Assembly (NCBI GenBank): GCA_964291315.2
Contig: OZ219750.1
Location: 192,001-256,000, forward strand
Length of the DNA stretch: 64,000 nt
Reading direction: 5' to 3'
Origin: Candidatus Poribacteria bacterium
Lineage (GTDB): Bacteria; Poribacteria; WGA-4E; WGA-3G
Positions 1 to 18,933 of this stretch are shown here, in pieces (within the stretch, counting starts at the first letter, position 1; each line of letters starts with the position of its first letter). Below the pieces are notes generated by a model. That model had not been told where the DNA came from, did no database searches, and was given only the letters and a program-made list of their open reading frames with translations. The position numbers were made by a program, and so were the translations under genes.

Positions 1-194
1 ATAGAGATGTATTCACCGCGTTGGATTTGGAAATTGACCCCGCGAAGTGCATCAACGGTTTGTGTCCCCATCTCATAGCGTTTGATAAGGTTCCGTACGC
101 GGACTGTGTTTTCTTTCGGCAGGATGCGTTGGAACTGTTCTGGTGTTTCGGTGAGAATTGGGTTAACATCGTTTATTTCTGTGGGTATATTCAT
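1..194 (-). CDS. ABC transporter ATP-binding protein, LolD/MacB type (N-terminal part, runs off window)
   Basis: Not in ORF track. Manual translation from ATG at 194: MNIPTEINDVNPILTETPEQFQRILPKENTVRVRNLIKRYEMGTQTVDALRGVNFQIQRGEYIS, the typical 'K.Y.MG...V.AL.GV...I..GE' start before Walker A. AGGGG RBS upstream. Confidence 0.85.
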   Translation of the reverse strand, partial: MNIPTEINDVNPILTETPEQFQRILPKENTVRVRNLIKRYEMGTQTVDALRGVNFQIQRGEYIS

Positions 195-232
195 TTTTCC
201 CCTTATGAGTAGTTAGCATTATTTTTTTTCGC

Positions 233-700
233 TTACCGTCTCTGTAAGAATCCAAAGATGCCCTGTTTTTTAGGTTCGGGTTCTGGTGTTACGGGTGCAT
301 TCTGGTGGTTGTCAGGGATAGCGAACCCGATGAAATTTCGTTTGCCGAGTTGCTGCATAAACGTAAAGAGGGATGTTTCTGCTTCTTTTCGAGTGAGTTG
401 GTACTGATTTTGGACTCCTTTGATAATCTGTGAAATGGTATGCTTACCATCACACATTTTCCAGACGTAAGTTCCGATAGAATCCAGCACGATGACTCTT
501 TTATTAGGGAGCATGAAGAATTTGCTAGCAAGTCGTACCCAAAGTTTGTCTTTCTGTGGAACGACAAGTGAGGCTTCTCCTTTGTCATCTATTTCCCATG
601 TAATCAATTGATTTCGCACCGGAAACGATTTCATAACCTGTGTGCGGTCTACATCAGGGCGTTTCTTAAGCTTGAGGGTGTATAGGAGCTTGTTGATCAT
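233..700 (-). CDS. PqqD-family protein (RiPP recognition element-like)
   Basis: 'LDSIGTYVWKMCDGKHTISQIIKGVQNQYQLTRKEAETSLFTFMQQLGKRNFI' fits the PqqD/RRE winged-helix pattern (LD..G..vW...DG..T...I...l...Y.......L..Fl..L). Confidence 0.8.
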   Translation of the reverse strand: MINKLLYTLKLKKRPDVDRTQVMKSFPVRNQLITWEIDDKGEASLVVPQKDKLWVRLASKFFMLPNKRVIVLDSIGTYVWKMCDGKHTISQIIKGVQNQYQLTRKEAETSLFTFMQQLGKRNFIGFAIPDNHQNAPVTPEPEPKKQGIFGFLQRR

Positions 701-749
701 TTCATTCGTTATGGGTTATTTTATCTGACGGTTATGATGATAATAAGCA

Positions 750-1790
750 TTAATGGCATTCGATGCTCTCGGCGACTTTTTGTACAGTTGGATATGCATC
801 GATATTACTGATGGACTGAATAACATAGATACGATTAGAATGGTTGCATCGCCATAGATGAAAGACAAGTGTTGTCCGTTTAGACAGTTTGTCAAGCACT
901 AACACCGGTGTAAGCGGAACACTATCATAGAGTCGTGTCTGTTGTCCACTAAGGGTGAGGTGTTCATCTCCTGTGTCTGTGTGTGATTCTACTTTGAATC
1001 CGTAGCCGCGAATAGCTTTCGCATATTTGGCTCGGAACCATGCTTCAAGCGGATTTGGAGCTTCTTGATAGTCATTGAGCATCACCTCTGCGGGTCCGTA
1101 TCGTTCGACGCTGAGACTGCCTTTGTCAGGTAGCCGGGTCTGCTTGTTTTGAGTTTGAGATGCCGCGTTGTTCTGTAGCCGGTTACTTGTCGATTTAGCA
1201 AGTTGCATAACCCTTTGAAAATGTTCTTTTTTTGCAACGAAGGCAAATAGGAGATAACCGCTGAGCAGTTTTTGGCGTTCCAATTTATATTCTCTGGGGA
1301 CGCTGAGTTTAAGTCCATAAGCACTCCAGAGCGTTTGTGGTGTGCCGGTGTTGTCTGTAATTGACTGAAAGATTCGTAGGACTGTGGGTCGCCAGTTCTC
1401 TTTGAGCCGTCCCATTACTTGTACAATTGTAATCCGTTTTCCGGCATGGAAGATCAATCCGTTGGCCCGAATGCTGCCCTTCCAACTAAAACCGAGGACG
1501 GTGCGTCCTTCGAAGAACATCGGGTCTTTGATGAGGTTAACATTCCGCCGAAAGGAGAGCTCGGTGCCTTTCTTGTAGGTTTTGCGAATCAGCTTGAAGT
1601 ATTCGTCAAGTGTTGCATGAAGGTCCGGTTTTTTACGTCGGGTGTTTGCCCATTTGAGTTCAAGACGCGGCATATCTCCATCGTCGAGTCGCAGGTAACC
1701 TGTTTTCTGATCTCCGCTGAGTCCGCTGAGTTCCCATGTTGTTGGGATTTCGAGTTGTATGCCTGCCCAGCCAAAAACAGTCCAATCCAT
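750..1790 (-). CDS. Hypothetical protein (346 aa) with two internally similar halves
   Basis: Long ORF in the operon. 'FGWAGIQLEIPTTWEL...GYLRL' resembles 'WSAYGLKLSVPREYKL...GYLLF'. Confidence 0.75.
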   Translation of the reverse strand: MDWTVFGWAGIQLEIPTTWELSGLSGDQKTGYLRLDDGDMPRLELKWANTRRKKPDLHATLDEYFKLIRKTYKKGTELSFRRNVNLIKDPMFFEGRTVLGFSWKGSIRANGLIFHAGKRITIVQVMGRLKENWRPTVLRIFQSITDNTGTPQTLWSAYGLKLSVPREYKLERQKLLSGYLLFAFVAKKEHFQRVMQLAKSTSNRLQNNAASQTQNKQTRLPDKGSLSVERYGPAEVMLNDYQEAPNPLEAWFRAKYAKAIRGYGFKVESHTDTGDEHLTLSGQQTRLYDSVPLTPVLVLDKLSKRTTLVFHLWRCNHSNRIYVIQSISNIDAYPTVQKVAESIECH

Positions 1791-1881
1791 TTTTTATTGG
1801 CGGTCGGCGATTAAAGGTTAGCGATTGGAAACCAATCTCTAACCCATAATTGCTGACTGTTAACCCCTATTTGTCATTTCT

Positions 1882-1916
1882 CTGACTGTTGACTGTTGAC
1901 CGCTGATAACTGTTAA
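1882..1916 (+). repeat. Heptamer tandem repeat (CTGACTG/TTGACTG/TTGACCG/CTGATAA/CTGTTAA)
   Basis: Five consecutive 7-nt units read directly. Confidence 0.7.
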
Positions 1917-3901
1917 AACGGTTTCACAATGACGGCTTTGGAAACAAGAGCAATTGCGACGGTTCCCATGCCTATGAGACCGACTCCACAGGCGAATCCT
2001 GCTGCAAGCACTGGATTAAACATGTACCAGCGCCGCATTCCGAATCTTTTGATCATATAGAACCGCCCGATGATTGCGCCGAGGAGCCGTGTAATCATAC
2101 TTCCTGGGTCTCCTCCGATACCGCCAACGATGCCGTAGTACCACATTGAAGGCAGTTTGAAGATCCAAAGCATACCGTAGATTGCCAGGCTTGAAGTGAG
2201 TCCAGCGGCAACATAGTCCCCGCGAATGGCTTGGAGCATTTCGCTATTCCCGTCTCGGAGAGATGTTTTCAGGAGACATTCGTTTGTGGCATTAATCGGC
2301 CACATCATCTGGGCAAATGGGTACTGTGCACTGGGAATGGGCGCTATTTTCCAGATAAAGTGGAGTACCACAATACCACTGACGAGCAAGATCGGCATTA
2401 TCAAGAGTGTGCCTGCAAGATTTGAGGTAAAGGTTGTCCCGGTCAGTTCGAGGACTCGCCATCCCTGTGTGCCTCGTCCATAATCCTCGTCCGGTAGTGG
2501 TGCAAACCAGATATCTACCTCTTCGTAGCGACTCAAAATAAACGTAATTTCGTGTAGGTAAGGTAGTTCAAAGAGGTCCCGTCCCAAGACACCGAAGGTC
2601 CGTGCAGTGATATATGAATTAATCGGTGTGTAGAGGAAAGCATAGCCGATCAGGAAGCTGATTGGGAAATTTGGAACCATCCAGTGAATAAGCCACACAA
2701 AGCCGCCCATCCCGAGGAGCCACATTAATCCCATTAACCAGATTGGAAAATCGCCGCGGTTTGGAGGGGTCGCGAGGGAACCTCGTTGACCTGCTTTTTT
2801 CTGAGTTTTCCGTAGTTTAACGACCATGGGAATTGAAGCGGCGAGTCCAACAAGCGCGAGGCTAAAGGATTTACCCATGCCATAACTAATCCAGAAGTCC
2901 AGGTTGTTGAACAAGGTGACGCCGCGGACATCCAACCCGGGTGTCCACTGGTTAAGGATCTCATAGCGGTATAAGATTTGCGGGTTCAAGATAAATTGAG
3001 ATGCCATTGCGGTGAGGAACTCTGTCATAACGACTGGGAACGGCAGCACGAACCCAATGAGCATCTGTCCAAAGTCAGTTCGGAAAGCGAAGACACCTGT
3101 TGGTGCGAAACCTTCAATACTTTGCGTGAAGTCTATCCACGGAATTTTCAGGATTTGGATGGGTTGGCTCATCATAACCCCAGTTAGTGAAGGCACCCCG
3201 ATATAGAGAAAGCCCCAGATTAATCCTGCCATAGAGCCGATGGAGAAGACTCGCCATCGCCATGTTTCTTCTTTCCCGGTGGTTTCTGCTAGTGCGGTTG
3301 CTCCCTGGGCGGCAATTGGGGCCATCGGGTATGGGAGTCGCTCTAGGTCAGCCGTGAGGCGAAATAAGATATATTGCCCGCTGACAAACCGCAAGGTGCC
3401 GAGCAGCTTCCCGGCGAGGTAGACGGCGATAGGCAGCAACCAGTCTGGATGCAACAGGCTTCGAGTGAGCACCCCGACGGAATCTCCTGCTGGCACGATC
3501 CATTCCGGGATTTTGTCTGCGATCTCATAAGAAGCGGCTTGTGGTGTATTGACAAAGTAGGCGTACCAGATAAAGTTCCGGTATTGTAGCCCGCTGCCGA
3601 CAGCCGCTCCTGTTAAGGAGAGGAGCATATAGAGCTCCTGCCGTCTTGCTGTTGTAAAGGAGCGCCGCGCGAGTTCGGTAAATAGAATAACGGCCACCCA
3701 AGGTGCTGCTTCAGCACCGGATTGACCGGATACGTAACTGAGATAAATGGCGCCTGGCATCATCAGCAAGCCAACGAAGAGTGCTCCGAGGAACACCTTG
3801 ACCGTTAAGCCCGACTCGAAGGTACGGATACCTCCTTCAATATCGTATCTTTGTGCCCAAGCTTGCCACTCATCTGCTTGTGATACTCTTTCTCTCGCCA
3901 A
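1913..3901 (-). CDS. OPT (oligopeptide transporter) superfamily-like polytopic membrane protein
   Basis: 662 aa with many hydrophobic helices, 'GLTVKVFLGALFVG' near the N-terminus and 'ERLPYPMAPIAA' (OPT-like LP[FY]P motif). TTG start with AGGAG RBS. Confidence 0.65.
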   Translation of the reverse strand: MARERVSQADEWQAWAQRYDIEGGIRTFESGLTVKVFLGALFVGLLMMPGAIYLSYVSGQSGAEAAPWVAVILFTELARRSFTTARRQELYMLLSLTGAAVGSGLQYRNFIWYAYFVNTPQAASYEIADKIPEWIVPAGDSVGVLTRSLLHPDWLLPIAVYLAGKLLGTLRFVSGQYILFRLTADLERLPYPMAPIAAQGATALAETTGKEETWRWRVFSIGSMAGLIWGFLYIGVPSLTGVMMSQPIQILKIPWIDFTQSIEGFAPTGVFAFRTDFGQMLIGFVLPFPVVMTEFLTAMASQFILNPQILYRYEILNQWTPGLDVRGVTLFNNLDFWISYGMGKSFSLALVGLAASIPMVVKLRKTQKKAGQRGSLATPPNRGDFPIWLMGLMWLLGMGGFVWLIHWMVPNFPISFLIGYAFLYTPINSYITARTFGVLGRDLFELPYLHEITFILSRYEEVDIWFAPLPDEDYGRGTQGWRVLELTGTTFTSNLAGTLLIMPILLVSGIVVLHFIWKIAPIPSAQYPFAQMMWPINATNECLLKTSLRDGNSEMLQAIRGDYVAAGLTSSLAIYGMLWIFKLPSMWYYGIVGGIGGDPGSMITRLLGAIIGRFYMIKRFGMRRWYMFNPVLAAGFACGVGLIGMGTVAIALVSKAVIVKPF

Positions 3902-3923
3902 ATTGAATGTTCTCCTTTTATTC

Positions 3924-3985
3924 GTTATCGGTTGTTGGTAAGAGATATTTCTTTTTGGGAACCAACAACTGATGCCCGATAACTA
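3924..3985. repeat. Imperfect inverted repeat built from heptamer units
   Basis: GTTATCGGTTGTTGGT ... ACCAACAACTGATGCCCGATAAC. Confidence 0.6.
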
Positions 3986-4001
3986 ATTCTTCTTGTCGTC
4001 T

Positions 4002-4178
4002 TCACTCTTCAGAGCCATCGGTATCTCGTAATTCTTCCCAGAAGTGTGCGGTGAAGATGCCAATTGTCAACACGAGTGCTGAGAGCATTTGCCACTGCCA
4101 CCGTCCTTCGAGAACGAGAATACTGAACAGCCATAAGAGGGTGCCAATAATGATGATAAAACCTGCTAATTTTTCCAT
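4002..4178 (-). CDS. Small two-TM membrane protein (58 aa), below ORF-track cutoff
   Basis: MEKLAGFIIIIGTLLWLFSILVLEGRWQWQMLSALVLTIGIFTAHFWEELRDTDGSEE; co-oriented inside the operon, with two clean hydrophobic helices. Confidence 0.7.
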   Translation of the reverse strand: MEKLAGFIIIIGTLLWLFSILVLEGRWQWQMLSALVLTIGIFTAHFWEELRDTDGSEE

Positions 4179-4305
4179 TTCTTATCGCTTTCGGTTCCTG
4201 AAGCGTTCGGCTGTGCTTCATTCGCAGCGTTTGGCAACCTGTCTGTATGTGTTGCGATACGATCTGCTGACAGCTGAAAGCGGGGTTCCGAGTGCTATTC
4301 CTCCT

Positions 4306-7300
4306 TTAATCTGCGGGTGCTAGGATGGGGTCGAGCTGTTCTGTTGCTGGTGCGTCGGTTCCTTCCGTTCTACCGCGTTCATGGAATTCTGCCCGGATAT
4401 CAACACTGAATGTCCGCCAAATTAGAAGTTGTTTCCGCAGTAGGTTGAGGAAACGTCGGTTTACACGTTTCCAAGAGGCGATCTCGCCACTCTCGCGATG
4501 CACATCGAGTGTAATTTTATAGAGGTCTTCCTCTTCGCCGCCTACAGGGGATGTAACGAATTGTATGGACTGGCTTACCCCTAAGTCATACGGTGCTAAC
4601 CATACCATCATGCCAATCTGGTAGGCATCTTCGCCTTCGGATTCTATAGTACTGAATGCGACCTGGTCGGTATAGAAATCGCTAGCGGACTCGTCTGAGT
4701 GTGCCTCGAAATAGTCGCGCATAAACACATTCAAACCGAGTGCTTCCTCTTCAAGGACGGTGAATGGGAGATTGAAATGCCATACATCCCCTTCGGGTTC
4801 TGGGAGTTTCCATTTGCGTTCGATGTCGGGTACCGCCATGCGTGAAGCCTTGAATGCCGGATACATGGTACTGAGTAAGACGACGAGCATGACGATAATT
4901 GTTGCGACGACAGTTGACATTGAGGAATAGTTGAGTGTTAATCCGGCAAGCCATCCGAAGCTTACGAGCGTTGTTGCGATTGCTTGCCCCATGAGGTAGC
5001 CTAGAACGGCCCCGACGATAGCATATACGCATGCCTCAGCAAAGAATAGGAAGGCGATGTGTATCGGGGCGAGTCCGACAGAGCTGTAGATACTGATCTC
5101 TCGAACACGTTCATAGACTGCGCCAAGCATCGTGTTGAGAACGATAAGTGCAGCGATGAGAATCGGAACGAATAGGTTACCCATGCCGCTGAAACTCGTC
5201 ATCCCGATACTGCTGTAAAGATATGTGTCTTTATCCCGTCCTACGAAGAAGTCGAGAGCGATCCGGTTCATGAGCGGTGCCATGATGAGGTCTAACTTAT
5301 CAATGGCGCTTAACAACTTCGGGTCATTTTCTTGTGGTTCCATGTTAACAGCGACGCTTCGGAGGGTGCCGCCTTGGTTCATAACCACATCATATGGAAG
5401 AATAGCGACGCTGTCCGGCGTGAGGTGGAGATATTTCTGTAATTCACCTTCGAGTGTTTCATCGCCGGTTGCCCCCCGGCTGCGTTGTTGTTGCATCAAC
5501 TGATAATCAACAGGCGTTAGTTCTTCGCCATCATTGTCTGTGAGGTCCTTGAAACCGATGCCGAGGACACCGACAACGGTGAAGTCTGCGCCGTAGACGG
5601 AGACAGTTGCTTTTCCCATGTCACTTTCCGTGATTTTCAGTAGTTCTGCCATTCCTTTGGGTAGCACGATAGCGTAGGGCCATTCTGTTGGCCAGTTCTG
5701 GGCATCTGCGGGCTCGAACCATTTTCCGTACTGCAGGTATCTGTTGATACTACTGACCTCGGGTTCTGCTTCGCTCATTCCGACTAGCATATTTGCTGCA
5801 AAAGTTAGTGCTTCCCCTGTGAGTGCATGTGTTGGTGGTGCTGGGTCTGCGGAATTTGCTGTCCGTGTAAGTTGAACGAAGGATTGGTCTCCAGTACCTG
5901 AAGATTGATACCATGCGCGTGGTGCGATGGAATTCCGAACGATTACGACGGCTTCCTCATCTACCTGTTCAATGAAGCCGCCTTGTTCTAAGGCTGCTCG
6001 GGTTTCTGCAATATCAACGGGCTGTTGTCCGTCCTTGATAAGGCGTTCATTTTTCCGTTCTAGGAGGCGTTCGAAGGCGGTAACGGTGATTTGCGTCTTT
6101 TGCAGGTCGTTCAATACGGAGGTAAGCACAGGTTCCTCTAGGGGTCGCCAGTATTGATCTCGTATGAGGAGACCTGTGTAGCGAGGGGTTACCTGCGGGA
6201 GGCTTGTTCTATTCGGATGCATAAACGTTCGAACAGAAGTAAAGGAAATGACAGTAAACGTGAGGATAACCAATGTACAGCAAGTTAGGATTGTTCTTCC
6301 TTTCCGTTTTCGCATGTTGGAAATTCCAAGGCTGAAGGCTGCAGCACTTGCGCTCAGTCTACCAACGTCTGCTTTGTAGACTTTGCTGCCCTCCTGTCGA
6401 ATCTTTTCGAGTTGTTCCTCGAATTTTCGGACAATGATAAAGATAACAATAACCGTCAAAGCAAGCACAACGAACGCTATTAGGATAATTACCGGGGTTG
6501 TTGTAATCTGGAATGCCGGATGGACCTGGCTTAGGAAGAAAAACACGAGTAAAAAGATTCCAAATGAGCCTAGAATCTGTTTATGGATGTTAGGGAAACC
6601 GAAGATGAGGCGTTCCATGAAGTAAGCAAAAGGCATCAACAAGGCGAGGTAGAACATTACACCGTTGACAACATCGTTGCCGGTCTGTTTGACATCGGGG
6701 TATGCGCGTGATTCGTAGCCCCAGGCGGCGCGTGCAAGTTTGAGTGCTTGCTGGTAATCATTTTGTAATAGCTCAGTCTCTGCGCGTGCGAGATAATCAT
6801 TCGCGAACTGGTGGAGTTTGTCTAGGCGGTCACTAGAGATACCGAAACGTTTATAGAGTTGTGATCGGTTTTCATCGAGCCACCACATGTCGCGAACGAC
6901 GACATAAGGCGTGAGGCGGATTCGTCCGTTCTCACGGACGACAAATCCTTCGCCGGTGTAAAGCGTTGGGTTTTTCATACCGCTCTTCGTGGCTTTAATA
7001 AGTAAGAGGCGTTTACCGATTTGTCCGTAAGCCATTCCGACTTTAATCCGGGTATTTGGTTCGCTATAAACGAGGGCAATTGGTTCGGCTGCTGAGACTC
7101 CTTCCTGCTGCCACGGTTTTGACATTCCAAATTTCTCTGGTGCACTATCGGTGAGGGCATCATAAATTTCAAGTTCGCGAAGAGTTCTCAAATACCGCTG
7201 ATCCACCAGATCATAGATAGTTGTGGAGACACATGGGAATGTGACGACCCTACAACCGCGTCTGCGCGTGTTGATTGGGATTTGGTTAGGGAGCAGTTTC

Positions 7301-10300
7301 GCGCCGTAATCCCCTAGATCGGGGGCATAGACTATGTCCCCGGAGTGTGGGTCAAGAATGTATGCTTCGACTTCTTGCACTCCGCCAAGACGGCGTGTAG
7401 CTCTGCCTTCCATGGCTAACCCGGCAACTTCGAAATTTCCTTTGTTATCTCCCATCACAAACAAGTCTCCGCGCACTCCCATCATGCTTTTATGCTTTCT
7501 TCGGAGTGTCAGGATAGGGTAAGGTACTGGTTTATTCGGTAGTGCGGACTCGCGGGCATCAAACTCAACAACATCGCCGAAGAGATTGCAATAGAAATTT
7601 CCGACGCGCGCGGCGGTCGGCATTTCTTCATCGCGGAGTGCTTGGATGAGTAATGATGCTAGGGTTTGTGCCTGTTGGTGGAGGTTGCCGCCTTCGCGCA
7701 GATCGACTCGTTCAATGGTGTCGAGGGGTGTATCGGTTAAAACGCGTGCATCCTCAATGGTTGCGAAAGCGATGCCAGTCTTTCCGACGAGTGTTGCGAC
7801 TTCGCTGTCGAAGGCAATCTTGCCGGGAATATAGGTTTTCCACGTTTTCCCGCCACTTGCTGAGATAGCATTCACAAAGTTTGAATCCCCGCCGAGCCCC
7901 GCGATTGAAATGAGGGTTTTAATGTCGTCGATTTCGTCATCAGAGAAGGTTTCAGGGTCCTCGTGTCGGAGGCGGAGCATTGCGTCCAGTTGTTCGCGCG
8001 TCCGAATGTTGTTTTTTCGATTCTTCTTTGCAGTGCGGACATCGTTTCGAATGAAGCGTTCAACCTCTTTTCGGATATAATCCATATCCTTGAGCATGTC
8101 CTCGGAGGGTTCGCCTTGGTTACGCCACTGCTCAAACTGCATTTTCATCAAGCGGCTCACCCCACTGAGCCCGGTGAGCTTCCCGAAGTGTGAGCTGAGC
8201 AAAGTTTCAAGGGTTTTTCCTTCGAGAGCCGATTTATCGGAGATTCCGTCTGCAACAGTCCATTGGCGTTCCATAACAGCTTGTCGAATCTGGTCATCTG
8301 TCCATTGCCAGAGTTTTCGGACGCGAACCCCGAAGTCAGCATCTTCTGCGTAGGAGGCGAGTTGATTGCCGATGCTTGCAAATTCACGACGTAGGACGAA
8401 TTCAGGTTGCTGGTCATAGAACCACCCTTTATTGAAGACCCCGAACTGATTGGACTGTGAAGAGAGATCAATGCTAACATAGAGAGAGGTATAGTAGCGA
8501 TTGAAGAGGTCTTGCAGAGCGATAGCGGCTTCGATTTGTCCAAGTTTCCGATTATATTCACCTGTATCAATGCGGAGCATCTTTTCAACGCGGCTTTGGA
8601 TGTTGCGAAATCGCGCGTTTCGGAGGGTTAGCAGGTTATCTCGCAAAAGCACCTTCGTTTCTGCATCGAGGTCGGTGTCGAGTGTAGGCAACCTTTCCCT
8701 GAGATTTTCAAGTGCTACGATGTCCGATTCTGCGCGTTTTTTGGCGGTTTCTAGTAGTTCTGTTTCGATAATGTGTGATGCGATCTGAGCGCGTAAGCTA
8801 AGTATTTGCTCCACTTCACTGTCTGAGAGGTAATTTTTCAAGATAAGTTTTTCTTCGGCGAGGTGTTCTCTTCCGAGCGTTCCGGCGGTTGCGATTAAGT
8901 TCTGAATACGCGTTCGCTCCAAGCGCGCGTTTCGAAGTCCGATTTCAAATATACTCTGCTTGTCTTTGAGCAGATCTGCGATTAAGACAGCAGCATCAGA
9001 AGAGTCATTGGATTCGGTTAAGCGTTGTCGGAGTTGTGCGTCGATAGAGTTCAACCGTTCGATACCGGCTTTGGAAATAAATTTCCCGCTGTAGAGTAGG
9101 GGGCTGTTGGTGTCTTGAGACGAGGGCGTTTCCTTGAGTTTGCGAATACTCGTCTTAATCTGGTCTTCAAAAGACTGGCTATCAGGGATTTTGACTAAGA
9201 CTTTTTCGAGGAGCTGGACTTCCGCTTGAATAGAGATCTGTTGGGATTGGTCGGATTTACGTAGAATGCTCCGAGCGTTTTTAGCTTCATCAAGCCCATG
9301 TAGATCAAGGTGCCTGTCCATTATTTTTTCAGGTGTCCACATTAGGGCAAATTTGCGTTTATCCGCCATCTCCCAGTCTGCAAGTGTCTGGTTTAGCATC
9401 TCAATGTCTGGGATGAGTTCTTTTGGGAGGTCCTGCGGAACTGGGATTTTCCATTCTGATCCTTGCTTTATAGGCATTAGATATGCTTCGTTTGGATGCG
9501 TAGCATATTTATCAGCAGTATTGGTTTTTATGGCATGAGTGAGTTTTCCTATAGCCCATGTGTCAAGTCGGGCGATCGGTAGTGCGACTGTTTCGATGAG
9601 TTCACGTTGTGCTATTCGGCTTGTGTTCAGGGCAACGGCGCGAACATCGGCCAACTCCTTGACAATATCCCGTAGGAAGTGCGTTGTTTGTAGTGTTTCC
9701 TTTTTTGACCGTGCAAGGTTCGCAAGTAATATGCTTTTTTCTTCATCAGTGAACTCTTGTTTTTCGCGTTTCCGGTTTCTATCGGCTTGTTTTTTCTGGC
9801 GTTCTGAAAAGTCGCGCTGTCGGTTTGTAAGGTCTTCGATCTCGGCGCGAGTTTCTGCCAAGCCGTCTAAGGTGGTCATCAGGGATTCTAGGTCAGATTT
9901 TACTCTATGTATGCCGTGGAAGAAATCAGAGGGGAGATCAACTAAGACGCTTCGATCGATTGAGAGCAAGAGTCTTCTGCCCAATTCTTCGAATTCGATA
10001 ACGTCTGTGGAGAGGCCGCGGCGTAGCCCGTGCATGGTCGGTGTTCCGGGAGAATCTGTGTCGCTGCCAACAATATCCTGGCCAATCCCTTCCATGAATG
10101 CGCGCATGCCAGCGAGTCCTTGAAAGTGTCCGTCGACTGCGACAAAAAGCACAGAATAACCCGGCCGGTATTGGGGAAGGCTGAAGAGTCTCGCTAGTTC
10201 CATGAGGGTGGCAATACCACAAGTCGGATCTGCTCCAGGGGCCATAGCAGGTACAATGGACATAGAATCATAGTAAGCAGTGAGGACGATGAGTTCATCG

Positions 10301-11664
10301 CGTAGGTTTGGGTTGCCGCCTTCCAAAAAACCGCGTATATTCTGACCGACGCGGCGTTCCCACGTCATCTTACCTCTGACACGAGCATTTACCTGATTTC
10401 CTGTGTTATGTTCTTGTTCAAGCAGATTCTCGAGGAAAGCAGCGTCATCTTTAGAGATCCAAAATCGCGGTATATTGGCGGGAACTGTGCCGAATTTGTT
10501 CTCTGCTTCTCCACGGATGGTTGTTTCGGGTTCAATGAAGATAATAGCGGTACCCCCGAGCATTGCTGCGTTGATATAGCGGGTACTGGAGTTAAAATCG
10601 AGAAGAACGATAGCGCCCTTTGGTATGAAGATATGTGCTTCGCTGGCAGCGACAAATTCGCCGTCTTCATCGGTTTCTCCGTTATTGTTATTGTCTATAC
10701 CGTCGGTGGCATCTCCAGAGATTTCGTCTGTCCATCCATCAGCGTCATTGTCAATGCCATCTGTTGCCCATCCGCGGATCTCGGAGAGCAATGGGATTTC
10801 CCCGTATTCATCGATAGTGCCGTCTTCATCATTGTCTATGCCGTCGGATGCTTTCTGCAGGTGTTCGTTGAGCACATCATCGGTAATACTTGCTTCGGTG
10901 ATGAGGTAACGTCGAGCGAGCGATGTAAGCGTATCTCCTTCTTGGAGTTTATACCAGAATCCGCCGATATTGGTGTTGTTAAAGTCTGCGAGTTCGCCAT
11001 CATCGCCGTAAAGGAGGGGCCCAGAGAGACCGCCTGTGGGAATGAATACGCTATTTCCTTCCACAACGGGAGATGGCAGAAATCTGTTTCGTTCATCAGT
11101 GAGAATTTCTTCCTCGGGGATGTCATAACTGGCTGCGATGATTTGGAGCGTCTCGCCTTCAAGAACGGTGTGCTTAATACTATCTGCTAATAAAGAAGTT
11201 CGGACGAGATTTGGCCAGAGAGGTGTGAGTTTGAAACTGTGTAAGACAGTCCCCTCAGGCGAGATTATCTCAATGATGCTATCCCCTTGATCAACTGGAA
11301 CAGTAACAGGAAACTCACGACTTTCCACGTTTTGCAAACCGATTTCGACGAATCTGTCAAAGATGTACTTGCTGCCGCTTGCGGCCTGTGGGTAACCTGT
11401 CACGCGGCTCTCTAAACTTGACAAGCGTGCGATGTCCTTCCGGATGTTGCCGATGGACATGTCATCTCGGATCTGAATGGCTGCTGCGGTTGACATCCCG
11501 GTGCTAGGAACCGTTTGCGGATATGTCTTGGGTACACTACTAGCGAGTAGAATAGAAAGGCTTAAAAATATTAAGACGTGTCTTGCCCGCGAGGATCGCA
11601 CGGTTGAGTCTGTTATGGTACTGAAACGTCGCGAATAATATTCACTCCTATTATGGATTCTCAT
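4306..11664 (-). CDS. Giant M28-peptidase-fold / LysM / Ca-binding repeat / FtsX-MacB permease fusion (2452 aa)
   Basis: Signal peptide; 'SRVTGYP'; two LysM-like units (HTVLEGETLQIIA, YKLQEGDTLTSLARRY); three DGIDND..G..DE-type repeats; M28-like 'IVLTAYYDS...PGAD'; TM cluster 'LGISNMRKRKGRT'; FtsX C-terminus 'VYERVREISIYSSVGL ... STMYPAFKAS'. Confidence 0.85.
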   Translation of the reverse strand: MRIHNRSEYYSRRFSTITDSTVRSSRARHVLIFLSLSILLASSVPKTYPQTVPSTGMSTAAAIQIRDDMSIGNIRKDIARLSSLESRVTGYPQAASGSKYIFDRFVEIGLQNVESREFPVTVPVDQGDSIIEIISPEGTVLHSFKLTPLWPNLVRTSLLADSIKHTVLEGETLQIIAASYDIPEEEILTDERNRFLPSPVVEGNSVFIPTGGLSGPLLYGDDGELADFNNTNIGGFWYKLQEGDTLTSLARRYLITEASITDDVLNEHLQKASDGIDNDEDGTIDEYGEIPLLSEIRGWATDGIDNDADGWTDEISGDATDGIDNNNNGETDEDGEFVAASEAHIFIPKGAIVLLDFNSSTRYINAAMLGGTAIIFIEPETTIRGEAENKFGTVPANIPRFWISKDDAAFLENLLEQEHNTGNQVNARVRGKMTWERRVGQNIRGFLEGGNPNLRDELIVLTAYYDSMSIVPAMAPGADPTCGIATLMELARLFSLPQYRPGYSVLFVAVDGHFQGLAGMRAFMEGIGQDIVGSDTDSPGTPTMHGLRRGLSTDVIEFEELGRRLLLSIDRSVLVDLPSDFFHGIHRVKSDLESLMTTLDGLAETRAEIEDLTNRQRDFSERQKKQADRNRKREKQEFTDEEKSILLANLARSKKETLQTTHFLRDIVKELADVRAVALNTSRIAQRELIETVALPIARLDTWAIGKLTHAIKTNTADKYATHPNEAYLMPIKQGSEWKIPVPQDLPKELIPDIEMLNQTLADWEMADKRKFALMWTPEKIMDRHLDLHGLDEAKNARSILRKSDQSQQISIQAEVQLLEKVLVKIPDSQSFEDQIKTSIRKLKETPSSQDTNSPLLYSGKFISKAGIERLNSIDAQLRQRLTESNDSSDAAVLIADLLKDKQSIFEIGLRNARLERTRIQNLIATAGTLGREHLAEEKLILKNYLSDSEVEQILSLRAQIASHIIETELLETAKKRAESDIVALENLRERLPTLDTDLDAETKVLLRDNLLTLRNARFRNIQSRVEKMLRIDTGEYNRKLGQIEAAIALQDLFNRYYTSLYVSIDLSSQSNQFGVFNKGWFYDQQPEFVLRREFASIGNQLASYAEDADFGVRVRKLWQWTDDQIRQAVMERQWTVADGISDKSALEGKTLETLLSSHFGKLTGLSGVSRLMKMQFEQWRNQGEPSEDMLKDMDYIRKEVERFIRNDVRTAKKNRKNNIRTREQLDAMLRLRHEDPETFSDDEIDDIKTLISIAGLGGDSNFVNAISASGGKTWKTYIPGKIAFDSEVATLVGKTGIAFATIEDARVLTDTPLDTIERVDLREGGNLHQQAQTLASLLIQALRDEEMPTAARVGNFYCNLFGDVVEFDARESALPNKPVPYPILTLRRKHKSMMGVRGDLFVMGDNKGNFEVAGLAMEGRATRRLGGVQEVEAYILDPHSGDIVYAPDLGDYGAKLLPNQIPINTRRRGCRVVTFPCVSTTIYDLVDQRYLRTLRELEIYDALTDSAPEKFGMSKPWQQEGVSAAEPIALVYSEPNTRIKVGMAYGQIGKRLLLIKATKSGMKNPTLYTGEGFVVRENGRIRLTPYVVVRDMWWLDENRSQLYKRFGISSDRLDKLHQFANDYLARAETELLQNDYQQALKLARAAWGYESRAYPDVKQTGNDVVNGVMFYLALLMPFAYFMERLIFGFPNIHKQILGSFGIFLLVFFFLSQVHPAFQITTTPVIILIAFVVLALTVIVIFIIVRKFEEQLEKIRQEGSKVYKADVGRLSASAAAFSLGISNMRKRKGRTILTCCTLVILTFTVISFTSVRTFMHPNRTSLPQVTPRYTGLLIRDQYWRPLEEPVLTSVLNDLQKTQITVTAFERLLERKNERLIKDGQQPVDIAETRAALEQGGFIEQVDEEAVVIVRNSIAPRAWYQSSGTGDQSFVQLTRTANSADPAPPTHALTGEALTFAANMLVGMSEAEPEVSSINRYLQYGKWFEPADAQNWPTEWPYAIVLPKGMAELLKITESDMGKATVSVYGADFTVVGVLGIGFKDLTDNDGEELTPVDYQLMQQQRSRGATGDETLEGELQKYLHLTPDSVAILPYDVVMNQGGTLRSVAVNMEPQENDPKLLSAIDKLDLIMAPLMNRIALDFFVGRDKDTYLYSSIGMTSFSGMGNLFVPILIAALIVLNTMLGAVYERVREISIYSSVGLAPIHIAFLFFAEACVYAIVGAVLGYLMGQAIATTLVSFGWLAGLTLNYSSMSTVVATIIVMLVVLLSTMYPAFKASRMAVPDIERKWKLPEPEGDVWHFNLPFTVLEEEALGLNVFMRDYFEAHSDESASDFYTDQVAFSTIESEGEDAYQIGMMVWLAPYDLGVSQSIQFVTSPVGGEEEDLYKITLDVHRESGEIASWKRVNRRFLNLLRKQLLIWRTFSVDIRAEFHERGRTEGTDAPATEQLDPILAPAD

Positions 11665-11861: not shown

Positions 11862-11891
11862 ATTTTATACTATTACGATAAATTTTGTCAA
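11862..11891 (-). promoter_or_regulatory. Sigma70-like promoter for the large operon
   Basis: Minus strand TTGACA-N18-TAAAAT. Confidence 0.55.
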
Positions 11892-12049: not shown

Positions 12050-12451
12050 GTGGACAAGGGATCGAAAGAATTAGAAAGAATTAGCAAAGTCGTCTCACGT
12101 ATAAAGTTGCGTCGTCGTGAATTAAATATGACGCAAACGGATCTTGCGAATGTAGCGAATTTAACGCCAGCTGCAATCTCACAATTTGAATCAGGAACCC
12201 GTAAACCTTCCTTTAATACGCTTTTAAGTCTTTCTGACGCTCTAAAAGTGACAACTGATTATCTACTTGGAAAGCAAGAGAGATGCTACGAGGATCTCTT
12301 AGCTGATCCGAAGATAAACATTATGCTTAGAGGTATGATGGAATTCACTGAGAAAGACAAAGAGACGCTCTATGAGTTCTATGAATTTCTCAAGACGAAA
12401 GCGGCCGCGGTAAAGGGGTCTGGAAAGGAAACATGCTCAGATTCAGAGTAA
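12050..12451 (+). CDS. XRE-family HTH transcriptional regulator
   Basis: 'MTQTDLANVANLTPAAISQFESGTRKPSFNTLLSLSDALKVTTDYLLG'; AGGAG RBS before GTG. Confidence 0.92.
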   Translation: MDKGSKELERISKVVSRIKLRRRELNMTQTDLANVANLTPAAISQFESGTRKPSFNTLLSLSDALKVTTDYLLGKQERCYEDLLADPKINIMLRGMMEFTEKDKETLYEFYEFLKTKAAAVKGSGKETCSDSE

Positions 12452-15135: not shown

Positions 15136-18100
15136 TTAAACGAGTTCAAACTGCACATCCGTGGCAGTATGCAGGTACTTTACCAATATGACCCCCTGAT
15201 CTTCGATATAAAGCCATCCAGATTCAACGTCTTCAAGTGTTTGTGCAGCCGGGACTTCAATTTCTGCGTATGTACTCCGTGCGTTAACTTGTTCGGGGGC
15301 ATCCGATGCTGCGTTCGATTCCGGATTTTGAGCAGGGCGGGTCGATGATGAGAGTTGATATCTTACACGAAGTGCTTTCGGGGTACTTTGGTACCCGACA
15401 ATAAGGGCATAGCTTGCCTCATTTGTTGCATAACTGAGCTGCCACTTCAGTCGGCCGGCATCAGTTAGGGTGAGTGCATTTATCTTTGCTCCTGAACTGA
15501 TATGTATTTCACCTGCGATAGCGGTTTTAATACCGGGATCAAGCCCTCGGAGTGTATAGATATTCACCATAATATTTTCAGGATTCAGATGAGGGCCCCT
15601 GCCTTCGGTACAGAAGCCATAAAATCCATCGGGATAGGTGCCTTTAAATTCACCATCCGCCCACTGTTGGTGCATCGCGCTGACGGTAATGCCTTCAGCG
15701 ATTTGGAGCCATCGTTCGTCCTTGGTATGTTGATTCAAACGTTGGAGATAGTAAGCGAGTACCAAACCGTTCCATTGAACGGGGACCCCGAACCATGGGT
15801 GTGTGTAGAAGGATGTCCCAAAAACAGGAATTGAAGCGAATTGCATACCGGGGCGGTCTGGGAGGTGCCAATGATACAGAAATGGCAAGGTTGTTTCTGC
15901 CCAGTAGTTTGCCCGCTTGAGGTATTCTTTTTCGGTTGTGAGTTCGTAAGCCTCCACATAAGCCGCGATTGCATGTGCTGCTGCGAGAACGTCGGGTTGA
16001 TACATTGGACATTCCCACATTTGTGCACCGCGAGGCAGCGAAAATTGCTTCATGAATTTGAGTGCCTTCACACCTGCTATTTGTGATGTTTTGTTTCCTG
16101 TGATTCGGGCGTGCTTCAGCAGTAGCAGAGCTGATTCCGCACAAGTGCCAAGTACTGCGTCCCCAGTCTTACCAAGGGAAGCGGTTTTCCCGTTTGTTTG
16201 CCACCGCCAACTACCATCGGATTGTTGGGTAGCGATACGTTGCTGGGCTTCTTTTTGCATGTAGGTTAATGCAGCATCTATATTACCTATATAGAATGGA
16301 AATTCCCAACTTAAAATGTGGCAAGAACCCCGTGCAGCCAAGCCTTCCTTACCGGATTCGGTTATAGTATTCTCTGCAATTTCTAATGCTCTTTCCTTGA
16401 CTTTTTTATTTTTTGTGGCAAGGTAATCATACCAGAGCAGCGTTCCGAAACCAGGTTCGTTATGAGCCTTCCAGCCTACGCAGTGGCGGGATTTTCGAGC
16501 GATTTTGTCCCATGTGACATGCATAAGTCCGTGCCGTGAAAGTAGGAGTTCTTCTTCATCAGTGCGGGGCGGTTCAAGCGGTTTAGGAGCACCGTAAGCA
16601 TCAGTCCAATGTGAGACAGCATCCAAAATAGAGGCGTTTCCATTAGCGATGATTTCGCATTTGATAGAGATCTCACGCGAGGCTGTCAACGGATAGGGCG
16701 TGGATGCCTCTGTCTCATTTTCTTGAACCCATTCTGGCGTAGTGGGCAGGAACAGTCCTAAAATGTGATTTTTCTGGTGTTGATGCCAATTCGGTGAAGC
16801 GAATATTGCAGAGAGCATATGGTTCTCGCTATCCCAAGTATCGAGCGGGTTCCAGATGATACCGACTACTGCTTTTTGCATCTCTACTGCCATGACGGGT
16901 ACTGTAATTTTATACGGATGTGGGACGAGACGGTTGTTAAGCGGTGGAAAGGCATCACGTGGGTTTGAGGAGTGTTCCTCATCTTCCAAAAATTCGAGGC
17001 CCGGGAATAGTGCAGCTGTTTTCTTTTCTGGGTTGTGTCCACATCCAGCGTAGAGTGTGGGGCCCCGGAAAGCAAGAAGTCCTCTATCTGCGTTGGTTTT
17101 CAATCGATATTCCGTTTTAACCCGGGTTGCCTCTTCGGTGAGAGTCCATTCCATCTCATAATCCCATTTTACACCGTCGGTATCCGTGTTCGTACCGCTT
17201 AACCGAACGATGGACTCATCATTGTTACCTGCAAGTTGGTATCTGGTTGGCACGAGTTGAAAGGTCTGACGGTTTTGTAATTCATCAAGGTAAACGACTT
17301 CGGAGAGTGCTGGACTGGTTGCTACCCGTTGGTAATTCCTGCCTTTTGCGACAAAAATCATGTAATATTGAAACCTGCTTTCATCCGGGTTTTCGTTGGA
17401 AGTCGTAGGCTGAATACTTCGAACAAAGACAATGCGGAGATGTTTGTTCCCTAGCACGACGCTGCCATTTTGCGAATAGGTGTGCAGTTCTTTTACTACT
17501 TTGGTGGTAAGTTTGGGGACGGACGGGAGTACAGTGACTTTACCTTGAGCAGTCTGACGTTTTTCACCAAGGGCGGTTTGGTATATAAGCAAAACTGAGA
17601 AAGGATGGACAGTCGGGCGTGGAAGACTACGGATGCTCCATTGGATATTAACTTTTTCCCCGGGCTCAATATGTTTGACGTTTTGCCTGGGTCTGCCACG
17701 TCTTAATCTTGCGCCGTTGATGGTAATCCGGGCAATGTTCCGTTTGTCTAATGGTGCATCGCCGCTATTTCGAAGGGTACATTGGATCTCAAAATCCTCA
17801 CCTGCTGAAACGACTGCCGCTGTTGATCCTATGCTCACAATTTCCAGTTTTGGTTGTAAAACATAAATAGATATTTTAGCGGGAGGTTCTTTTATATCTA
17901 GTGTTTGAATGCAAATATCTGTTAAAGCAGTAACGGGTGTGGAAACAGACTGATTGAATACCAGGGACTGTGTCTTTTCATCGTCGAAGTGTACGATAGC
18001 GATGCCGCATCGGGCTTCGGGTTCAGCACCTCTTTTCGCTTTTCGCAGAGGTTTCTCTTCGAGTTTGTAGAGTTCCGGTTTGCCCCACAATGCCCACGCG

Positions 18101-18933
18101 TAGTTGCTATTGCCTGGCGTGTTACATTCTGTCAAGAATGAGATAACAATGTTTTTACCGGCGTAGTCTGTGAGATTGACACTTTTTTCTTGCCAGCAGC
18201 ATTCGGTTGCTACTGATTCAAAGCGTCTCTCTGGCGGATCAGTTTCTCCGCTATTAGCAATTTCGAGAGCGAACTTTACGCCCCCAGGTTGTCGTTCCGT
18301 GTCGTCAAACGCGACCCCGTCCCGCAAACCGATAAAAAAGTGGAGAAGGAGTTGATCTTTGCTGTCTGTCTCTGGAAGCGAAAGGGTATAGTTAATTTTT
18401 GCGGTTTCTGTTGGTGCTGGGTGTTCAAAGATAGCTGGTTTTTGGATACCACCTGAACAGTCTATACCGTTGGCAGCCGCCTGCTCTGCCCCGGAGACAG
18501 TGCTATGTTCAAACATATCTACGAAGTCGTAGAGCTCCTGGGCAACACCAAGAATTAGGGGTATAGGTTCGAGTGTTCTTTCTGATTCTGCTTTGGTGTG
18601 GTCGCTCACTTCTGTTTCTTGTGCTTGTATTTTTGTAGATTCTAAGTTGTCGTTGCTATTTTCTGTAATAGGTGGTTCTGCCTCATCTTCAGTAAGTGCC
18701 CTTTCTGGTTCCAGAGGAGCTTTCTCCAAAGCAGATGAGGCATCGCTTTTTCTGATTTCCGTATCTGCAATAGATGATGCTATAGTTTCGGTGTCATCTG
18801 AGGAATTGGCATCAACTGTAAGTTTTAATTCTGTCTGCGGTTTGTCGCTATCTTGTGCGTCAGTAGGTTGATGCGCCTCTTCTTCTGTTTTCCCGATGCA
18901 TGTAGCTAAAAACTGTTGAAAACTAGTGAGCAT
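15136..18933 (-). CDS. Large multidomain hypothetical protein (1265 aa), possible carbohydrate-active enzyme
   Basis: Acidic disordered N-terminus; NPCBM-like beta-sandwich ('GGVKFALEI...WQEKSVNLTDYAGKNIVISF...YAWALWGKP'); CARDB-like segment; C-terminal alpha/alpha-toroid-like helices ('QQSDGSW', 'AYVEAYELTTEKEYLKRA'). Confidence 0.75.
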   Translation of the reverse strand: MLTSFQQFLATCIGKTEEEAHQPTDAQDSDKPQTELKLTVDANSSDDTETIASSIADTEIRKSDASSALEKAPLEPERALTEDEAEPPITENSNDNLESTKIQAQETEVSDHTKAESERTLEPIPLILGVAQELYDFVDMFEHSTVSGAEQAAANGIDCSGGIQKPAIFEHPAPTETAKINYTLSLPETDSKDQLLLHFFIGLRDGVAFDDTERQPGGVKFALEIANSGETDPPERRFESVATECCWQEKSVNLTDYAGKNIVISFLTECNTPGNSNYAWALWGKPELYKLEEKPLRKAKRGAEPEARCGIAIVHFDDEKTQSLVFNQSVSTPVTALTDICIQTLDIKEPPAKISIYVLQPKLEIVSIGSTAAVVSAGEDFEIQCTLRNSGDAPLDKRNIARITINGARLRRGRPRQNVKHIEPGEKVNIQWSIRSLPRPTVHPFSVLLIYQTALGEKRQTAQGKVTVLPSVPKLTTKVVKELHTYSQNGSVVLGNKHLRIVFVRSIQPTTSNENPDESRFQYYMIFVAKGRNYQRVATSPALSEVVYLDELQNRQTFQLVPTRYQLAGNNDESIVRLSGTNTDTDGVKWDYEMEWTLTEEATRVKTEYRLKTNADRGLLAFRGPTLYAGCGHNPEKKTAALFPGLEFLEDEEHSSNPRDAFPPLNNRLVPHPYKITVPVMAVEMQKAVVGIIWNPLDTWDSENHMLSAIFASPNWHQHQKNHILGLFLPTTPEWVQENETEASTPYPLTASREISIKCEIIANGNASILDAVSHWTDAYGAPKPLEPPRTDEEELLLSRHGLMHVTWDKIARKSRHCVGWKAHNEPGFGTLLWYDYLATKNKKVKERALEIAENTITESGKEGLAARGSCHILSWEFPFYIGNIDAALTYMQKEAQQRIATQQSDGSWRWQTNGKTASLGKTGDAVLGTCAESALLLLKHARITGNKTSQIAGVKALKFMKQFSLPRGAQMWECPMYQPDVLAAAHAIAAYVEAYELTTEKEYLKRANYWAETTLPFLYHWHLPDRPGMQFASIPVFGTSFYTHPWFGVPVQWNGLVLAYYLQRLNQHTKDERWLQIAEGITVSAMHQQWADGEFKGTYPDGFYGFCTEGRGPHLNPENIMVNIYTLRGLDPGIKTAIAGEIHISSGAKINALTLTDAGRLKWQLSYATNEASYALIVGYQSTPKALRVRYQLSSSTRPAQNPESNAASDAPEQVNARSTYAEIEVPAAQTLEDVESGWLYIEDQGVILVKYLHTATDVQFELV

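Follow-up and report, generated by a model that had tools for sequence, protein, structure and literature searches.

A conserved gene set pairing a giant M28-like, FtsX-type permease with a predicted OPT-fold carrier in Poribacteria and other bacterial phyla

The permeases of type VII ATP-binding cassette (ABC) systems such as MacB, LolCDE and FtsEX work by mechanotransmission, in which ATP hydrolysis moves periplasmic domains and the substrate is not conducted: MacB expels antibiotics and toxins, LolCDE releases lipoproteins, and FtsEX switches wall hydrolases. Proteins of the OPT/YSL family are importers, and to our knowledge few substrates have been assigned to bacterial OPT-fold carriers. 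Parts of both kinds occur together in a run of six genes of Candidatus Poribacteria bacterium (GCA_964291315.2, contig OZ219750.1), at the start of a stretch of 64,000 nucleotides, the window (G000:C1:192001-256000), in a 4.4-Mb genome of four contigs. Like MacB, LolCDE and FtsEX, the locus encodes a four-helix FtsX-type permease, with a putative periplasmic domain between the first and second transmembrane helices (TM1 and TM2) and a separate LolD/MacB/FtsE-like ATPase, and the loci of other phyla share with LolC/LolE an arrangement of two permeases. Unlike in those systems, one permease is a giant protein, fused behind an ectodomain of ~900-1650 aa and three extra transmembrane helices and extended by a conserved, predicted cytoplasmic C-terminal domain; its partner permease, where present, has almost no periplasmic domain; and the conserved partner of the giant is a predicted OPT-fold carrier instead of a membrane-fusion, TolC-, LolA/B- or EnvC-type protein. 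With a rough probability of 0.9, the genes specify a single conserved system whose basis is a type VII ABC module together with an OPT-fold carrier. Each part is of a known kind; their architecture and conserved pairing do not appear to have been described in the literature searched.

On the minus strand, open reading frames (ORFs) of 2452, 58, 662, 346 and 155 aa succeed one another at intergenic gaps of 38-127 nt, with no terminator-like site on that strand within the gaps, and are followed by an ABC ATPase gene cut by the window edge, which is completed from the genome (270 aa, G000:C1:191382-192194). An earlier reading of the window (the original prediction) had described the same genes in the same order and orientation. 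The genes are as follows.

4306..11664, minus strand: giant fusion protein, 2452 aa (ORF, Pfam, and PDB sequence matches to LolC, MacB, YtrF, Nicalin and aminopeptidase)
4002..4178, minus strand: small membrane protein, 58 aa (ORF with one strong and one weaker hydrophobic segment)
1913..3901, minus strand: predicted OPT/YSL-fold polytopic membrane protein, 662 aa, TTG start (model and Foldseek)
750..1790, minus strand: p346, predicted cytoplasmic protein of 346 aa with two PsbP/Mog1-like domains (model, fold search and alignment)
233..700, minus strand: PqqD-like protein, 155 aa, with a conserved N-terminal extension (Pfam PqqD and alignments)
1..194 (ORF 3-194), minus strand: first 64 codons of the LolD/MacB-type ABC ATPase, the rest of which lies left of the window

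Comparative genomics indicates that the giant and the OPT-like protein belong together. An alignment of the OPT-like protein was scanned against 185,579 species genomes and found 595 relatives; all locus counts given here refer to the best 79 of the 595, namely 47 loci from Poribacteria and 32 from other phyla. The latter come from metagenome-assembled genomes (MAGs) labelled Armatimonadota, WS1, Zipacnadia, Abditibacterium, Brocadiia, Hebobacterum, Gemmatimonadota, Latescibacterota and others, among which one 'Janthinobacterium' and one 'Nitrospiraceae' MAG may be binning errors. L003 of Poribacteria and L057 of the others break off upstream of the OPT-like gene, leaving 77 loci assessable. 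In 70 of these 77 (46/46 in Poribacteria, 24/31 in other phyla) the gene for the giant immediately precedes the OPT-like gene, mostly across gaps of 15-120 nt, and the pairing holds at 40-45% identity across several phyla. The genes thus form a conserved, co-localised set beyond the lineage of the window, the kind of evidence that the original prediction had named as support for one system. The members of the set are distributed as follows.

Giant: 46 of 47 Poribacteria loci, 24 of 32 loci of other phyla
p346: 46 of 47 Poribacteria loci, 10 of 32 loci of other phyla
PqqD-like protein: 46 of 47 Poribacteria loci, 6 of 32 loci of other phyla
ATPase: 45 of 47 Poribacteria loci, 11 of 32 loci of other phyla
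Small FtsX permease: 0 of 47 Poribacteria loci, 11 of 32 loci of other phyla

The gene for the 58-aa protein is confined to Poribacteria (43/47 loci versus 0/32). Accessory gene order is retained in Armatimonadota-type loci, and in several loci the p346 gene overlaps or directly adjoins that of the PqqD-like protein. Five genomes that have the giant/OPT pair with no p346 or PqqD-like gene nearby were found to encode p346 elsewhere in four cases and a PqqD-like protein in all five (four of these matches at E <= 1e-23), with the two genes side by side in one genome. Iterated hidden Markov model searches with p346, PqqD, the 58-aa protein, the ATPase and the two further genes downstream (a lyase and an MBL-fold hydrolase, see below) did not grow past the first round within the fetched loci.

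Within the phylum of the window the giant is present in 147 of the 151 genomes searched (129 of the 131 of high quality), mostly as a single copy, with 3-5 matches per genome in one family. In the four genomes that lack it, the OPT-like gene and p346 are missing as well, a joint absence that adjacency makes non-independent. A profile of the ectodomain and the three extra helices retrieved 1,467 clusters (50% identity) at E <= 1e-30 among 1.84 billion representatives; 140 of the best 150 representatives include the FtsX part (median 1533 aa), and the other ten (574-1090 aa) may be fragments. Clustering of 209 neighbouring ORFs of the 32 other-phylum loci yielded no conserved enzyme partner, and the set has no conserved partner of the membrane-fusion, outer-membrane/TolC, LolA/B or EnvC type, which lends no support to its earlier description as envelope-spanning. 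Full-text literature searches returned no published account of the gene combination, and the homologues bear source names such as 'hypothetical', 'M28 family peptidase', 'LysM...' and 'peptide transporter', in agreement with the earlier statement that no characterised pathway combines these parts.

In the giant the following parts can be distinguished, all on the minus strand.

11530..11580, minus strand: N-terminal hydrophobic stretch, residues ~29-45, after a basic N-terminus and without a lipobox Cys (read from the translation)
10882..10953, minus strand: LysM match, residues 238-261 (Pfam E 4.1e-08), inside a Poribacteria-specific N-terminal insert
10090..10341, minus strand: first half of the M28-like domain, residues 442-525, with altered catalytic positions AYYDS, GADP and DGHF (Pfam, and alignments to 2anp/1amp and Nicalin)
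7915..9987, minus strand: insert of ~690 aa, residues ~560-1250, rich in E/K/R/Q/L and poor in Gly/Pro (composition)
6685..7917, minus strand: best-conserved part of the ectodomain, residues 1250-1660 (identity across loci; 613 homologues)
6433..6672, minus strand: three extra transmembrane helices, residues 1665-1744 (hydropathy), with invariant charged or polar columns (E, R, H, P) across the family
4825..6294, minus strand: MacB/FtsX-type permease, with TM1 at residues 1791-1809, a putative periplasmic core domain, and TM2-4 at residues 2165-2267 (Pfam, hydropathy, PDB LolC/MacB)
4309..4812, minus strand: conserved C-terminal domain, residues 2285-2452 (~165 aa), predicted cytoplasmic, 33-49% identical in all phyla

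The permease assignment is carried by the FtsX domain (PF02687, residues 2166-2276, E 5.1e-12, 46.4 bits against a 25.5-bit cut-off, matched by 11/11 homologues) and by PDB sequence and profile matches of the C-terminal part to LolC, MacB, YtrF and LolF. MacB_PCD is a weak match in the giant itself (residues 1956-2058, E 0.0017, 19.1 bits, under the 27-bit cut-off) and matches 6/11 homologues (best E 3.2e-08); by hydropathy, ~350 residues separate TM1 from TM2. No known family was found for the C-terminal domain, on which an Atlas search was uninformative. The hydropathy helices and the hydrophobic N-terminal stretch, which scored under the threshold of the hydropathy scan and is predicted to be a signal peptide or anchor, point to a topology of signal or anchor, extracytoplasmic region of ~1600 residues, three transmembrane helices, short cytoplasmic linker, four-helix permease and cytoplasmic C-terminal domain.

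A 1529-aa Armatimonadota homologue is colinear with the giant throughout, and compared with it the Poribacteria giants have three inserts: the LysM-bearing one, which also holds three Asp-rich DGIDN-type repeats (read from the translation), the ~690-residue one, and a smaller one in the putative periplasmic core domain. The ~690-aa insert splits the M28-like domain, is found in Poribacteria giants only and is missing from homologues of 1500-1800 aa; LysM (PF01476) is annotated on most Poribacteria homologues (precomputed). Residues 1250-1660, probably the second half of the M28-like domain together with a helical domain, show 83-98% identity in most Poribacteria loci (40 of 47); the six most divergent reach 64-79%, L003 is unmatched, and other phyla show 30-59%. 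Two giants (P0274 and P0287, 2769 and 3053 aa) have 1000-1200 extra N-terminal residues with Big_5 Ig-like domains before the M28-like domain.

The ectodomain is related to aminopeptidases with a PA domain. Peptidase_M28 matches the giant with the first 78 of its 193 profile positions only (PF04389, E 4.1e-07, 30.4 bits against a 21.3-bit cut-off), and a profile of 11 shorter homologues matches the PA-domain aminopeptidase 2ek8 in the PDB (E 9.3e-23), as well as YwaD (6hc6), keratinase KP1 and the inactive relatives transferrin receptor, Nicalin and nicastrin; a PA domain was detected in 1/11 of these homologues. Unlike in the M28 aminopeptidases, the M28-like domain of the giant is split by an insert and covalently joined to an ABC permease. 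In the Vibrio enzyme (2anp/1amp), His97, Asp117, Glu151, Glu152, Asp179 and His256 are the co-catalytic zinc ligands and the catalytic Glu. The giant has Tyr for His97, His for Glu151 and Phe for Glu152; in the window protein and 19 homologues, which span several phyla, neither the Tyr nor the His ever changes, position 152 is variable, and an Asp or Glu is retained near position 117 (PGA(D/E) motif) in the family alignment. A guess from motifs would have Asp179 kept and His256 replaced by Asp. By alignment, then, the canonical M28 active site is absent family-wide at the His and Glu-Glu positions, and since the canonical catalytic set is missing in every aligned homologue, standard M28 processing of peptides by the ectodomain is unlikely; the original prediction had allowed for such processing. 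In contrast to decayed pseudoenzymes, the replacement residues are invariant, which suggests a remodelled site, for binding or for a different chemistry, and not simple decay. The M28-like domain is probably a binding module and not a standard peptidase.

The 662-aa protein has no Pfam match (PF03169 gave none at E up to 1) and no NCBIfam match, and its family profile finds no match in the PDB by sequence, although PF03169 is matched by 2/12 homologues (best E 7.2e-08). Its AlphaFold model (predicted local distance difference test score, pLDDT, 75.5; predicted TM-score 0.74) aligns by Foldseek with barley Yellow Stripe 1 (7wst_A/7wsr_A, E 6e-10, probability 1.00, TM-scores 0.59/0.64, 15% identity) over its full length, in ~680 alignment columns; the next PDB match has E 0.035. 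On the model, the protein is an OPT/YSL-fold carrier (TC 2.A.67), as its earlier label 'OPT-like' had it. It stands apart from the described members of the OPT family as a separate subfamily with a genetic link to the giant permease.

The ATPase has intact Walker A, LSGGQ signature and H-loop, and its top NCBIfam models are LolD, DevA, MacB, YbbA and FtsE, all below equivalog cut-offs, which bears out the label 'LolD-type' at the level of the family. In all 11 other-phylum loci with an ATPase gene, this gene adjoins that of a small FtsX permease (220-280 aa) almost without a periplasmic domain, which has no counterpart in the operons of Poribacteria. The sole homologue of the small FtsX in the window genome (40-44% identity) is encoded on contig C4 beside an ATPase 61% identical to that of the operon, in a two-gene unit at G000:C4:1035138-1036634 (L081:7135-8631, minus strand) whose permease is a minimal FtsX of 225 aa. 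Because the small FtsX gene lies beside the ATPase gene in other phyla and a homologue exists elsewhere in this genome, a heterodimeric permease pair, by analogy with LolC/LolE, is likely to be the ancestral arrangement. The giant itself was considered as the FtsX or LolC/E equivalent of this genome and ruled out: it scores far under the cut-offs of the NCBIfam FtsX and LolCE models, and the genome has a canonical-looking FtsE/FtsX pair (C4:297900-299453, with the FtsX-like ORF at C4:298608-299453, E 6e-26) and a LolCE-like ORF (C4:1490490-1491941, E 1.4e-69).

Two accessory proteins are predicted to lie on the cytoplasmic side. p346 has no transmembrane segment or signal peptide by sequence and hydropathy, no Pfam or NCBIfam match, and only 'hypothetical protein' clusters in an Atlas search. 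Its model (pLDDT 87.1) consists of two PsbP/Mog1-like halves, in keeping with its earlier description as a two-repeat protein. At E <= 0.001 a fold search returned nothing but PsbP or PsbP-like subunits from photosystem II and NDH–PSI entries (14 PDB chains), each covering about half of p346 (TM-score to the target 0.47-0.66); taken singly, each half matches PsbP at E 3e-05 to 1e-03 with TM-scores to the target of 0.55-0.66, and Mog1, Tsi3 and EagT6 match more weakly. The modelled fold is thus a PsbP/Mog1-type binding fold and no recognisable enzyme fold. Compared with the PsbP/Mog1/DUF1795 proteins, which include the Eag chaperone and Tsi3, p346 is a tandem duplication, is predicted to be cytoplasmic and has a Cys/His cluster (CxxC...C...CH) in most homologues. 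The copy in the window (750-1790) lacks the CxxC and retains the later Cys and Cys-His positions; 13 of the 14 other aligned homologues carry the CxxC, including L026 of Poribacteria, and the exception is L039, also of Poribacteria.

The 155-aa protein contains a PqqD domain of ~60 residues (PF05402, E 1.5e-11, 44.9 bits against a 23.4-bit cut-off), which confirms its earlier identification, behind a family-specific N-terminal extension. PqqD-type NCBIfam models all score under cut-off, the nearest being ScmD, PqqD and lasso-type chaperones. It resembles the PqqD-type recognition elements (RREs) of pathways for ribosomally synthesised and post-translationally modified peptides (RiPPs) in the domain itself, and differs from them in the N-terminal extension, in the lack of RiPP enzymes nearby and in a fusion to FtsX: in L069 the PqqD-like domain is joined to the N-terminus of the small FtsX permease, and this fusion in one lineage makes the protein look like a cytoplasmic part of the transporter. 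Its earlier interpretation as a leader-peptide RRE finds no support in the neighbourhood, where neither radical SAM nor other maturase genes occur among the 17 flanking ORFs scanned (8 downstream, 9 upstream), nor any RiPP maturase among the recurrent neighbours in the 32 other-phylum loci. Predictions of a complex of p346 with the PqqD-like protein scored 0.38, 0.04 and 0.16 (median 0.16 against a mark of 0.32), which is not evidence either way.

How the parts might work together as an inner-membrane machine is a more tentative matter, and the capture-and-import mechanism that fits them best is held at somewhat short of even odds. By analogy with other type VII systems, cytoplasmic ATP hydrolysis by the ATPase, acting with the giant and with the small FtsX where present, would move the PA–M28 ectodomain. 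Acting as a receptor or clamp, the ectodomain would take hold of a ligand in the periplasm, in the simplest case one resembling a peptide or a metal chelate, and would hand it to the OPT-fold carrier, which would import it. The proteins of PsbP-like and PqqD-like fold would be binding modules that dock on the cytoplasmic face, at the C-terminal domain, the small FtsX or the ATPase, as regulators or receivers. The relay of the original prediction, from ectodomain through the OPT-like protein to an RRE, is likewise conjectural.

Several points weigh against this view of the system. The OPT-like gene stands alone in 7 of the 31 assessable other-phylum loci; five of these seven genomes were searched, and all hold 1-4 full-length giants elsewhere and 1-4 OPT-like paralogues, with five pairs adjacent. 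The operon of the window has no small FtsX gene, which leaves the composition of the complex in this genome uncertain. The second half of the M28-like domain cannot be aligned by sequence to any solved M28 enzyme, which bears on the equivalence of its ligands, and the invariant Tyr/His/Asp-type residues at the former catalytic positions could form a new catalytic site and not a binding site. Finally, near-universal and mostly single-copy presence fits a housekeeping role in the envelope at least as well as nutrient uptake.

Such a role is the substance of the main rival explanation, which is unlikely. FtsEX acts with EnvC, a degenerate M23 protein; by analogy, the ectodomain, with its degenerate peptidase fold, would bind the wall and regulate a hydrolase under the control of the ATPase, and the OPT carrier would recycle the released peptides. 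The set behaves like core genes (147/151 genomes, mostly single copy, very high conservation), the catalytic set of the ectodomain is degenerate, and its LysM in Poribacteria is a candidate wall-binding part, but this LysM is confined to the Poribacteria insert and absent from the homologues of 1500-1800 aa. In one WS1 locus the OPT-like gene and p346 are separated by a gene of the FtsW/RodA/SpoVE (SEDS) family (L054:14099-15253), whereas neighbour clustering found no hydrolase gene conserved with the set. The separate FtsE/FtsX-like pair (C4:297900-299453) and LolCE-like gene in the genome likewise speak against envelope and peptidoglycan remodelling, and the 3-4 giant paralogues per genome in some families would be unusual for a part of the divisome.

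A second family of carrier-like partners accompanies some giants. In one representative (P0357, 2120 aa), the giant M28–FtsX protein is fused at its C-terminus to DUF6785 and DUF6784, and this fusion speaks for a physical link between the giant and a partner resembling a carrier. Free DUF6785/DUF6784 proteins (~660 aa) are encoded directly upstream of the giant in one Brocadiia and one Armatimonadota locus (L060:3383-5410 and L072:2874-4871), and also divergently near giant paralogues in four related genomes. The window genome has 19 polytopic DUF6785/DUF6784 paralogues of 630-695 aa, and 14 well-known control genomes have none.

G000:C4, 19 places (e.g. 394148-395623, 2779768-2781246 and 1080231-1081718; L098-L100): DUF6785 paralogues

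These genes are scattered, with neighbours that include genes for a sulfatase, a GHL10 glycosidase-like protein, an enzyme of the enolase superfamily, a GHMP sugar kinase and a PGA_cap protein, which suggests an expanded family of substrate-specific carriers. Kinship of the OPT-like family with DUF6785 was considered and rejected (hhalign found no similarity, at probabilities of 1.1 and 0.3), and a full-text literature search for DUF6785 returned nothing. It is conceivable, if quite improbable, that the giant and its ATPase are a new device for coupling transport, an ATP-driven periplasmic receptor that serves secondary carriers (OPT-fold and DUF6785/DUF6784) and not an ABC channel; the remodelled Tyr/His/Asp site of the PA–M28 ectodomain would then possibly bind a metal or metal chelate. 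If true, many substrate-specific carriers would share one energising module, in a logic loosely like that of energy-coupling factor (ECF) transporters or TonB.

A role in the maturation and export of a peptide is very unlikely. In such a scheme the PqqD-like protein would recognise the precursor peptide in the manner of an RRE, p346 would modify the peptide or serve as its chaperone, and export would fall to the OPT-like protein together with the ABC module. The PqqD domain exceeds its Pfam threshold and ScmD, PqqD and lasso-type chaperones are its nearest NCBIfam models, but all of these score under cut-off. The CxxC...C...CH cluster of most p346 homologues and the overlapping or abutting p346 and PqqD-like genes of several loci speak for this reading, yet p346 has a predicted PsbP/Mog1 binding fold, its copy in the window lacks the CxxC, and no radical SAM, cyclodehydratase, protease or other maturase was found in the 17 flanking ORFs or among recurrent neighbours. 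The sole candidate small gene encodes a 58-aa membrane protein specific to Poribacteria, OPT proteins are importers, and a core-gene distribution is atypical of RiPP clusters.

That unrelated genes merely lie together in this lineage is scarcely credible: the last two genes of the run (a lyase and a hydrolase, see below) look like passengers, and the ATPase, p346 and PqqD-like genes are missing from many loci outside Poribacteria, but the giant/OPT-like pairing is kept at 40-45% identity over several phyla, the order of accessory genes is conserved in Armatimonadota-type loci, fusions of PqqD with FtsX and of the giant with DUF6785 exist, and the missing parts turn up elsewhere in the same genomes.

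Two further features lie upstream of the giant gene.

11862..11891, minus strand: promoter-like site, TTGACA / 18 nt / TAAAAT, 11/12 matches (consensus match only), ~200 nt upstream of the giant gene
12050..12451, plus strand: divergent gene for an HTH_3 (Xre-type) regulator (Pfam), kept at this position in related Poribacteria

Promoter-like matches such as that at 11891-11862 are no rarer in shuffled sequence, and the single promoter assumed in the original prediction stays conjectural. The HTH_3 regulator is found upstream of the giant in 19/47 Poribacteria loci by tblastn. Beyond the window, the ATPase gene is followed by two further co-oriented genes, for a DgaE-type lyase dependent on pyridoxal phosphate (PLP) and an MBL-fold hydrolase, which were considered as parts of the system and rejected as passengers: the lyase gene accompanies the set in 27/47 and the hydrolase gene in 28/47 Poribacteria loci, and both do so in 0/32 of the others.

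Other neighbours were recorded in passing. DUF1559/N_methyl pilin-like genes (prepilin-type N-terminus) are the sole recurrent neighbour family outside close kin; in eight loci, from MAGs of WS1, Zipacnadia and Armatimonadia, they come immediately after the OPT-like gene (e.g. L054:12150-13925, L049, L057, L065-L067 and L078); this recurrence could be due to chance if the family is very abundant in such genomes. Just past the downstream end of the operon lies a gene for an Eco57I/N6_Mtase-type restriction-modification methylase of 957 aa (L001:5921-8794, G000:C1:185921-188794). Upstream, an ORF of 1265 aa without a Pfam match (window 15136-18933, minus strand) adjoins genes for a DUF2961 protein and two xylose-isomerase-like TIM-barrel proteins.

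The giant family constitutes a large uncharacterised branch of type VII ABC systems, near-universal in Poribacteria and widespread in Armatimonadota, WS1, Planctomycetota and related uncultured phyla, and offers a natural example of an M28 active site rebuilt with different invariant residues. If the giant and the OPT carrier work together, they would represent a new way to couple ATP to secondary transport. The system would give bacterial OPT-fold carriers a testable functional context, and would account for a core set of genes in major lineages of sponge symbionts and of soil.

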